In this document: piece by piece, positions 29,015 to 30,588 of the stretch
How positions within the stretch are numbered: the first letter of the stretch is position 1
Layout of the letters: each line of letters begins with the position of its first letter
Origin: Neolecta irregularis DAH-3
Taxonomy: Eukaryota
Reading direction: 5' to 3'
NCBI GenBank assembly: GCA_001929475.1
Contig: LXFE01000360.1
Location: 1-45,902, forward strand
Length of the DNA: 45,902 nt
Made by a program: the position numbers and the translations under genes
The notes under the pieces: model-generated
The model's input: the letters and a program-made list of their open reading frames with translations, nothing else
Databases searched by the model: none
Told to the model about the DNA's origin: nothing

Positions 29015-30588
29015 CTACTTGTTTTGGTTTCTTTGGTTATTGGCCCAATTTTTGATTCGAATTGACTCAATCTTCGTAGTCAGTTGACATCAATCCAGAA
29101 AAGATACTTTGATAAACCCGGTCGTATCGCAAGGCTCGAATCCACCAAGTTCGTCCATACTGCTTTCATTTGCATTGTAAAGGCGTTCCGTTTTCGAACT
29201 TCGTCCAAGGACGCTGAAGTTGCCTTTGTAGACCTGGCATCTGACTTGCCCATTCACGGACTTTTGAGAAGAGACGATTGCATCAGAAAGAAACTGGAAG
29301 GTGGGCTCGCAGTTATAATTGACCCAATACCTCTCTCTCTGGACTGAAATACATCCCGTTGTAAAGGATTTGTCCAAAGTTAAAAGTAACGAATTGATCT
29401 CGAAGAGCGCGAACATTGCGGTCAAGGGTCAAGCCCTCCATAAGTTTAGTTAAACCAAGGGCGGTAATGGCACACACCTCTAAATCCATATGGGCAGCCC
29501 TCAAGCAAGTCAACGCAGGTGTTTCATATACGCTATTCTTAGCCAAATCACGTAAGCGACATATACCCTCGACTCTTGATTCCAATGAACCTAGATTCAA
29601 CAATATCAATGCGTCCGACGCCATGTTTTCTAGCGATACTATTCAAAGCCAAGAACAGTTCAAGAGAATCGGTGTATGTTTTCTCCGTCTGCAGTGCAAC
29701 AGGAATTCCCTTTTCAAAGAATAGGGTAAACGATTCTGGTTTCTCAGGTGCGTCTTCAGGGTTAACAGTCAACTTGAACATGTCCTTTGGAGGTGAAGTA
29801 TTCGGATCTTCGAGGATACCAGCTTCATAGGAACAATGAGCGATGTTTTCATCAGTAGACCACGGCTTCGCAGCAGTCTGAGCCACTGGAATTCCTTTTT
29901 GAGAGGCGTATTCTAGAAGATCCTTTCGTCCAGCGAATCTGTTGTAAAAGTATAAATAGTCAGGCTGTGAGATATTAGAGTGTATATACCTGGAATTCTC
30001 CAAGGAGCAACAACCTCGATATCTGGATTCAATGCATAGTAGCCTAGTTCAAACCGGACCTGATCGTTCCCCTTTCCAGTACATCCATGACTGACAGCGA
30101 TACATCCCTCACGTTTCGCAATTGCGATTTGCGATCGGGCGATAACCGGTCGAGCAAGAGAAGTACCCAACAAGTAGACGCCCTTAAAAGTAAGGACCAA
30201 TGGCGAGCAGAGAGATAATACCTCATAAACTGCATTACATTGAACTGCTGGAAAGACTAGTTCGTCGATAAATTCTTTCCTCAGGTCCTTTTGACGGTAA
30301 GATGGCAAATTAAGAGAGAATAACTTGCTTCAATGAATACTTTGGAGGCACCGATTTTCAAAGCCTTTGCTTTTGCAGCTTCAAAATCCTCTTCTTGGCC
30401 GATATTGGCCACTGAACATGTTACCTGGGGATGAGAGGAAGTATTCGTACTAAATGCCAGGACCTCCCAACCTTGTTCAAGAAGCCATGCAAGGATACAG
30501 CTGGTATCAAGGCCGCCAGAATACGCAAGTAAAAGCTGTTGCAACTCAGATTTCAGTCAATGGAGTGTTTTACCTTTTTTGGTGCCAT
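29015..30588 (-). CDS. ARG1: Argininosuccinate synthase, about 9 introns
   Basis: [71 protein letters not shown]. Confidence 0.96.

Follow-up and report, generated by a model that had tools for sequence, protein, structure and literature searches.

A 38-nt GT..AT intron in the argininosuccinate synthase gene of Neolecta irregularis

The argininosuccinate synthase locus

The DNA analyzed here, referred to below as the window, is a stretch of 45,902 nucleotides (nt) from Neolecta irregularis DAH-3, an early-diverging ascomycete (Taphrinomycotina), and corresponds to positions 1 to 45,902 of contig LXFE01000360.1 in GenBank assembly GCA_001929475.1. Its minus strand carries an argininosuccinate synthase (ARG1-type) gene with nine introns, the fifth of which begins with GT and ends with AT. 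An intron of this form had been proposed at 29952..29989 in a preliminary description made from the sequence alone. The gene, the intron (the target intron below) and its two flanking exons are located as follows, where X2 is one of two sequencing runs introduced below.
29015..30588, minus strand: ARG1-type argininosuccinate synthase coding region, from ATG (30588-30586) to the stop codon, defined by the joints of run X2 and by Pfam
29990..30182, minus strand: ARG1 exon 5, ending with APWRIP and the first base, G, of the junction codon GAC; contiguous in the X2 contig
29952..29989, minus strand: GT..AT spliceosomal intron, 38 nt, phase 1, intron 5 of 9 in ARG1; skipped exactly in the X2 contig
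29567..29951, minus strand: ARG1 exon 6, beginning with AC of the junction codon; contiguous in the X2 contig

In a protein search, the translation of exon 6 gave a 100% match to an annotated N. irregularis DAH-3 protein (P0001, 415 amino acids), which carries the Pfam domains PF00764 and PF20979 and has the source name argininosuccinate synthase. The second-best match was P0002 (93% identical), followed by fungal argininosuccinate synthases at no more than 77% identity. P0002 is transcript-like: its contigs do not exceed 1308 nt, and a translated leader precedes the Met. When the ARG1 exons were spliced at the run X2 joints, with intron 1 placed by reference to the N-termini of P0001 and P0002, an uninterrupted frame of 423 codons was obtained. 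Exons 5 and 6 were aligned with ten full-length homologues, the annotated model P0001 included, and fit the family without a gap, apart from one residue at the junction, with the conserved APWRxP-x-F(Y/F)xRF segment intact. Judged by its sequence, the spliced gene product is a full-length member of the argininosuccinate synthase family.

Transcript and genomic evidence for the intron

No run recorded as RNA contains this stretch; the two that do contain it, X1 and X2, both labeled 'DNA?', were compared with window positions 29050-30620. Run X2, a small set, comprises 20,248 contigs, and one of these (3433 nt, depth 43.3) matches the ARG1 stretch with 0 mismatches and 0 gaps over 1224 aligned bases. 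This contig removes seven ARG1 segments that on the coding strand comprise five GT..AG, one GC..AG and the target GT..AT. The skipped segments, given by its joints, are the following.
29072-29107, minus strand
29294-29330, minus strand
29533-29566, minus strand
29952-29989, minus strand
30182-30220, minus strand (cut may slide)
30287-30327, minus strand (cut slides by one)
30412-30450, minus strand
Because the contig lacks seven short introns of a single gene, run X2 is most simply read as processed RNA; its record carries the label 'DNA?' and lists no library.

At the target intron, the X2 contig joins 29990 straight to 29951 and skips 38 nt, the ends of which read AT..AC on the plus strand. 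On the coding strand the sequence runs tgg aga att cca g, then GTATATACACTCTAATATCTCACAGCCTGACTATTTAT (29989 down to 29952), then ac ttt tac aac aga ttc gct gga cga, with GT at 29989-29988 and AT at 29953-29952. No letters are inserted at the joint, and none are shared between its two sides ('both' = 0), so the position of the cut cannot slide. The joint is CCAG^ACTTTTAC, the very junction that the preliminary description had predicted, and no canonical in-frame alternative is used in the contig; the proposed coordinates and length are thereby borne out to the base. The base at 29952 was checked on the genomic contig of run X1 (depth 415), which is identical to the window over 1571/1571 bases and has AT, not AG, at this place. 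Run X1 is possibly the source of the assembly. A 38-nt intron ending in AT is truly removed from the ARG1 transcript.

One other placement was considered and rejected. A shift of the 38-nt gap by two bases would turn it into an AT..AC intron (ATATAC...AC) and produce a Gly codon; the joint is fixed ('both' = 0) and reads G|AC, which encodes Asp.

The reading frame points to the same 38 nt. Read through unspliced, the gene meets a stop, and the frame downstream is offset such that a gap of length 2 mod 3 is required. With the sole GT donor present here, the frame is restored only by removal of exactly 29952-29989, which yields cca GAC ttt tac (P-D-F-Y). Two AG dinucleotides lie near the used site.
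29965..29966, minus strand: unused internal AG (TCACAG), upstream of a CTGAC motif taken as the putative branch point; would give a 25-nt out-of-frame intron
29939..29940, minus strand: first AG downstream of the branch motif, within exon 6, at 21 nt from the branch A; its use would produce a 51-nt intron with a shifted frame
The first of these had been dismissed as a usable site on account of the frame, correctly: taken with this donor it leaves a 25-nt gap and reads cca gcc tga, a stop, and the resulting intron would undercut the shortest of 21 local introns (33 nt). The second is unused in the X2 contig, where 29567-29951 is a continuous exon.

The spliced product is the only reading that keeps both the frame and the conserved APWRIP-x-FYNRF spacing. 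Exactly one residue stands between WRxP and F(Y/F) in 9/9 full-length homologues other than the annotated model, and the 93% identical P0002 reads APWRIPDFYNRF, with the same Asp across the junction. The motif had been written beforehand as WRIP(E/D)FYNRFAGR. Its one-residue spacing is invariant, as that form implies, but its restriction to E or D is not: the junction residue is D in N. irregularis and P0002 and V, A, E, V, V, T and K in seven other full-length homologues.

Non-canonical junctions are often artefactual (PMC7072748), and a single contig supports this one, which raises the question of a technical artefact, either an error in the genome assembly or a chimeric or template-switched complementary DNA contig. 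An artefact is highly improbable. A contig built separately from the genomic run (depth 415) reproduces the window; template switching depends on a short repeat, and the two sides here have no letters in common; this joint alone restores the frame and the family spacing; and the same residue occurs in the transcript-like protein of the 93% identical relative.

The two runs come from separate samples and carry different organism codes, the genomic 3' end of the intron is invisible in an X2 contig from which the intron is missing, and TAG, which ends 9/21 local introns, is one change from TAT. The genome could on these grounds carry a G-to-T change at the last intron base while the RNA came from an individual or nucleus with a canonical TAG, in which case the transcript would be uninformative on the AT allele, and that allele could be null or leaky. 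Such an allele difference is quite unlikely. The X2 contig shows 0 differences from the window over 1224 bases, including a retained 42-nt segment described below, which fits the same or a near-identical genotype; run X1 gives a single contig with no variant listed, though contigs drop rare variants; and, according to the genome paper (PMC5309816), fruiting bodies of N. irregularis were the source of its DNA as well as its RNA, data of which X1 and X2 may be part.

The unused AG sites also bear on how much of the pre-mRNA takes the observed route. If most of it were spliced elsewhere (for example at the AG 21 nt past the branch, which shifts the frame), or escaped splicing, and were then degraded, the GT..AT joint would be a leaky minor product, dominant only among stable mRNAs. 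Wild-type yeast uses non-G 3' sites only weakly (PMC10711555), retention of the 42-nt intron-like segment suggests that ARG1 splicing may not be uniformly complete, and isoform ratios are invisible in contigs. No second X2 contig covers the region, however, and no loose ends were reported, so that a leaky product is judged unlikely; it would in any case bear on the efficiency and not on the reality of the GT..AT joint.

Comparison with local introns

The target intron was compared with the introns of its surroundings using a set of 21 from the window, namely nine of ARG1 (seven transcript joints, one placed by homology and one retained candidate) and twelve of the DIS3/RRP44 gene at 10994-14365. 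The latter were obtained by mapping the annotated protein P0121; 11/12 of their junctions are gap-free against six homologues, and the twelfth lies in an unconserved tail. The branch search used a simple yTrAy score, with distance counted from the motif A to the last intron base. The signals of the target intron are as follows.
29984..29989, minus strand: 5' splice site GTATAT; the same hexamer opens three GT..AG introns (ARG1-I6, DIS3-11742 and DIS3-13200)
29959..29963, minus strand: putative branch-point-like motif CTGAC, top score in the yTrAy scan, with the presumed branch A at 29960 (intron position 30, 8 nt before the end)
29952..29954, minus strand: 3' splice site TAT (UAU in RNA), given by the X2 joint; one base from TAG, the commonest local 3' trinucleotide

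At 38 nt the target intron falls within the local length range of 33-42 nt (n=21), and its donor begins with GTA as do 16/21 of the set. The CTGAC motif is also the best one in ARG1-I9 (8 nt from the end), DIS3-12773 (7 nt) and DIS3-11742 (5 nt), all of them GT..AG introns. The 3' trinucleotides of the 21 introns are TAG (9), CAG (6), AAG (4), GAG (1) and TAT (1); the target ends AT where local U2-type introns end AG, and this is its sole misfit with them.

The preliminary description had held that the spacing between branch motif and intron end is shared with ordinary AG introns, and the local set agrees. The A of CTGAC lies 8 nt from the end; for the best-scoring branch-like motif of the non-target introns the corresponding distance is 5-10 nt in 17/20, with a mode of 7. 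In 2000 shuffles of the intron interiors the mean was 7.3 and the maximum 15, none reaching 17. The three exceptional introns appear, by eye, to have weaker motifs within the 5-10 nt range. The suggestion made on this basis, that branch-point distance may largely fix the 3' site, is supported within the limits of the data and is taken up under mechanism.

The example of such spacing given at the outset, CTGAT-ATTGCAG, occurs once in the window, at 9652-9663 on the minus strand, in a gene with Pfam Mg_trans_NIPA hits (region 9629-9700). There the nearest upstream GT is only 19 nt from the AG, and a 35-nt GC..AG intron starting with GCACGC looks possible in frame by eye.

GT-AT ends are documented for U12-type introns, in which branch distance determines the 3' site, and removal of the target by the minor spliceosome was also considered. 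The U12 donor box has the consensus RTATCCTT, and the U12 branch box, TCCTTRAC, is located about 10-15 nt from the 3' end. The target donor, GTATATAC, matches the former at the first four positions only. Its branch region, AGCCTGAC, with the A 8 nt from the end, bears a partial likeness to the latter: CCTGAC loosely resembles the box and is close to the 3' end, a spacing that is general among ordinary local introns (17/20), just as GTATAT opens three ordinary GT..AG introns. Rfam and transfer RNA scans of the 45.9-kb window gave no hits, and no small nuclear RNA gene (U11, U12, U4atac and U6atac included) was found in it. To our knowledge, the minor spliceosome has been lost in Ascomycota. On the other side, seven U12-type GT-AT introns have been tabulated, and experiments cited with them show GT-AT ends to be competent for U12 splicing (PMC1557818). 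A U12-type intron is very improbable here, and the target intron is almost certainly of the major type. The element at 29952..29989 is very likely a genuine U2-type (major-spliceosome) intron of ARG1 with T instead of G as its last base and UAU as its 3' site.

Mechanism and origin

Yeast spliceosomes without Prp18 use HAU 3' sites and sites closer than 10 nt to the branch, as reported by Roy et al. 2023 (PMC10711555). The same report ranks CAU and UAU first in efficiency among non-G sites and finds that usage rises with U upstream; a U(-1):G(+1) pair was proposed, in which C or A at -1 would clash. Substrates with a short branch-to-3' distance require neither Prp18 nor Slu7, and distances of 7-8 nt occur in some yeasts (PMC10711555).

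The most likely mechanism for the Neolecta intron follows that proposal for yeast without Prp18 (PMC10711555), and would have a branch-proximal UAU 3' site dock through U(-1):G(+1). The intron would be defined as its neighbors are: the donor is of the GTA type, a yTrAy branch follows some 26-33 nt downstream, and the exons are ligated 5-10 nt beyond the branch A. So short a tether between branch and intron end could, largely by its geometry, bring the nucleotide 8 nt after the branch A to the catalytic center. A(-2) would still be able to make its usual contact, and U(-1) may, by analogy with yeast, form an alternative non-Watson-Crick pair with the first G of the intron, G(+1). The target UAU is preceded by CUAUU, lies 8 nt from the branch A and has G(+1) intact.

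The likely and simplest origin is a G-to-T change in an ancestral TAG 3' site. Such a change would have been tolerated because the nearest AGs are unusable, one lying 5 nt upstream of the branch A and the other 21 nt downstream of it, beyond the 5-10 nt range and out of frame. A metagenome scan with P0002 returned 28 loci, the best 67% identical, none of which is a Neolecta relative; tblastn of these loci is silent on this intron position.

A broader proposal is that Neolecta, where introns span about 33-42 nt and some 7-8 nt separate the branch from the 3' end, takes the branch point as the reference for exon ligation and no longer strictly requires the terminal G. This is possible but doubtful. 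If it were true, UAU and other non-AG 3' sites should recur genome-wide, hidden by gene prediction restricted to GT..AG; the second-step factors Prp18 and Slu7, and perhaps the U2AF small subunit, should be lost or altered; and the genome would offer a natural counterpart of the relaxed branch-proximal 3' choice of yeast without Prp18. Three ab initio ways of looking for further non-AG introns were applied within the window, and none proved specific enough to be of use. The first gave a histogram of motif-to-AG distances without a clear peak over the Markov control; joining of open reading frames with a codon score gave a score that did not discriminate; and a search for a donor and branch motif with open frames on both sides found AG only mildly enriched (66/598 candidates in the strict version).

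Several points weigh against reading the target as a U2-type intron with a branch-proximal UAU site. The joint comes from one transcript contig of one run, and contigs give no share of splicing. The RNA nature of run X2 is deduced, its record being labeled 'DNA?'; X1 and X2 differ in sample and organism code, and with the intron missing from the X2 contig the RNA source could conceivably carry an AG allele. Among the introns used for comparison, 11/12 of those of DIS3 come from an annotated model that only gap-free homologue alignment supports, and in each of the 17 introns with the motif at 5-10 nt no other AG intervenes between the motif and the AG that is used; these 17 do not separate a distance rule from AG scanning, and only the target intron does. 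Branching at CTGAC and pairing of U(-1) with G(+1) are likewise putative, as is any unusual condition of Prp18, Slu7 or U2AF in Neolecta.

Relation to documented introns

GT-AT introns are a documented rare class, to which the Neolecta ARG1 intron adds a new case and not a new kind. Sheth et al. 2006 reported 99 U2-type introns whose 3' end is non-canonical; one of them, in DGCR2, is of the GT-AT type and conserved between human and mouse (PMC1557818). In a curated annotation of Ganoderma lingzhi, 18 GT-AT introns stand against 89,855 GT-AG introns (Table 1 in PMC11590231). For fungi, Frey and Pucker 2020 gave 0.257% 'other' splice-site pairs and described the 3' site as the more flexible one (PMC7072748). 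The Neolecta intron resembles the U2-type GT-AT introns of DGCR2 and Ganoderma in having an ordinary-looking donor and branch, with only the last base departing from AG, and in being a rare intron in a functional gene. It differs from them in its dimensions: it is 38 nt long among local introns of 33-42 nt, the branch lies 5-10 nt from the end, and there is no real polypyrimidine tract; the short tether may be what mainly positions its 3' site.

With the splicing of Saccharomyces cerevisiae without Prp18 (PMC10711555) the Neolecta intron shares UAU, a short branch distance (8 nt in Neolecta, 7-10 nt in the yeast), a U-rich run ahead of the site and retention of G(+1). The yeast products are low-level and aberrant and arise in a mutant, whereas here a wild fungus uses UAU productively in a central metabolic gene. 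Non-canonical U12-type introns (GT-AT, AT-AA and AT-AT; PMC1557818) likewise tolerate a last base other than G and have the 3' site near the branch, but the Neolecta intron lacks their defining donor box, and its donor equals those of neighboring GT..AG introns; it is alike in outcome and not a member of that class. GC-AG introns, finally, are also single-base departures from GT..AG that are missed by predictors, and ARG1 itself contains one, at 30288-30328. The change is at the donor in those introns and at the acceptor here, and GC-AG, at about 1% of fungal introns (Table 1 in PMC7072748), is far commoner than GT-AT.

No description of Neolecta splice sites of this kind was found in the literature searched. 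The words 'intron', 'splic', 'RNA-seq' and 'transcriptom' are absent from the main text of the genome paper (PMC5309816), and a comparative intron paper that used the genome names Neolecta once, in its source list, and does not contain 'non-canonical', 'noncanonical' or 'U12'.

The intron shows a housekeeping gene that is, in nature, spliced productively at UAU, and through it the proposed U(-1):G(+1) contact could be addressed on a natural substrate. Neolecta introns are very short and have the branch 5-10 nt from their end, a geometry that corresponds to the one in which such sites are tolerated by yeast, and this makes Neolecta a candidate system for asking how far branch distance can replace the identity of the 3' site. 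The case would be more interesting if such sites recur in Neolecta.

Public annotation and other introns of ARG1

P0001 was mapped to the window and compared with the X2 contig and the homologues. Three further features of ARG1 emerged.
29965..30014, minus strand: annotated 50-nt GT..AG intron (wrong), which deletes VVAPWRIP and adds PDYLY
30288..30328, minus strand: GC..AG intron 3, 41 nt, GCAAGT...AAAAG, from the X2 joint 30286>30328 ('both' = 1) after a 1-nt slide
29436..29477, minus strand: in-frame GT..GAG intron-like segment, 42 nt (14 residues), kept in the X2 contig and in the public protein

The annotated 50-nt intron is contradicted by the X2 contig, which reads 29990-30014 as exon, and by the presence of APWR in 9/9 other full-length homologues aligned. 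In place of the GC..AG intron, the annotation has a 53-nt GT..AG intron (30288-30340) with loss of VFIE, again contradicted by the X2 contig and the homologues. At both introns of ARG1 that are not GT..AG the annotated model thus uses GT..AG instead, and the GenBank ARG1 model is wrong at two of nine introns. Correction of this public gene model would give back to the GenBank enzyme the conserved VVAPWRIP and VFIE that it lacks. Errors of this sort are likely in other Neolecta models as well.

A second GC donor (GCATTT, 11211-11247, plus strand) is found in a poorly conserved stretch of the annotated DIS3 model, with support from that model only. GC donors at 2/21 introns are high against about 1% in fungi, in a small sample in which the second case is annotation-only.

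The 14 residues encoded by 29436..29477 are absent from 9/9 other full-length homologues, P0002 included. The segment is to be read as a retained intron whose GAG 3' site is weak, or else as an intron that was exonised recently; accordingly, ARG1 splicing may be incomplete, or the segment may now be coding.

Other features of the window

Only 1224 nt of the 3433-nt X2 contig fall on the ARG1 stretch, and the remainder extends beyond 29050 toward lower coordinates (about 26800-29050, minus strand). Overlapping transcripts of ARG1 and the next minus-strand gene, read-through between them or a merge by the assembler may account for this.

A Pfam scan of open reading frame fragments covered the first 140/381, corresponding to window positions 1-16400, and gave the following genes.
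About 1460-2036, minus strand: V-ATPase subunit C
2592-3488, minus strand: mitochondrial carrier
4021-5079, plus strand: class II tRNA synthetase
About 7084-7950, plus strand: HMG box protein
9691-10134, minus strand: NIPA Mg transporter
10994-14365, plus strand: DIS3/RRP44, with 12 introns of 33-40 nt
14561-15131, minus strand: ribosomal protein L6 family
15507-16171, plus strand: Nse4
The genes in this part of the window are all split into short exons.

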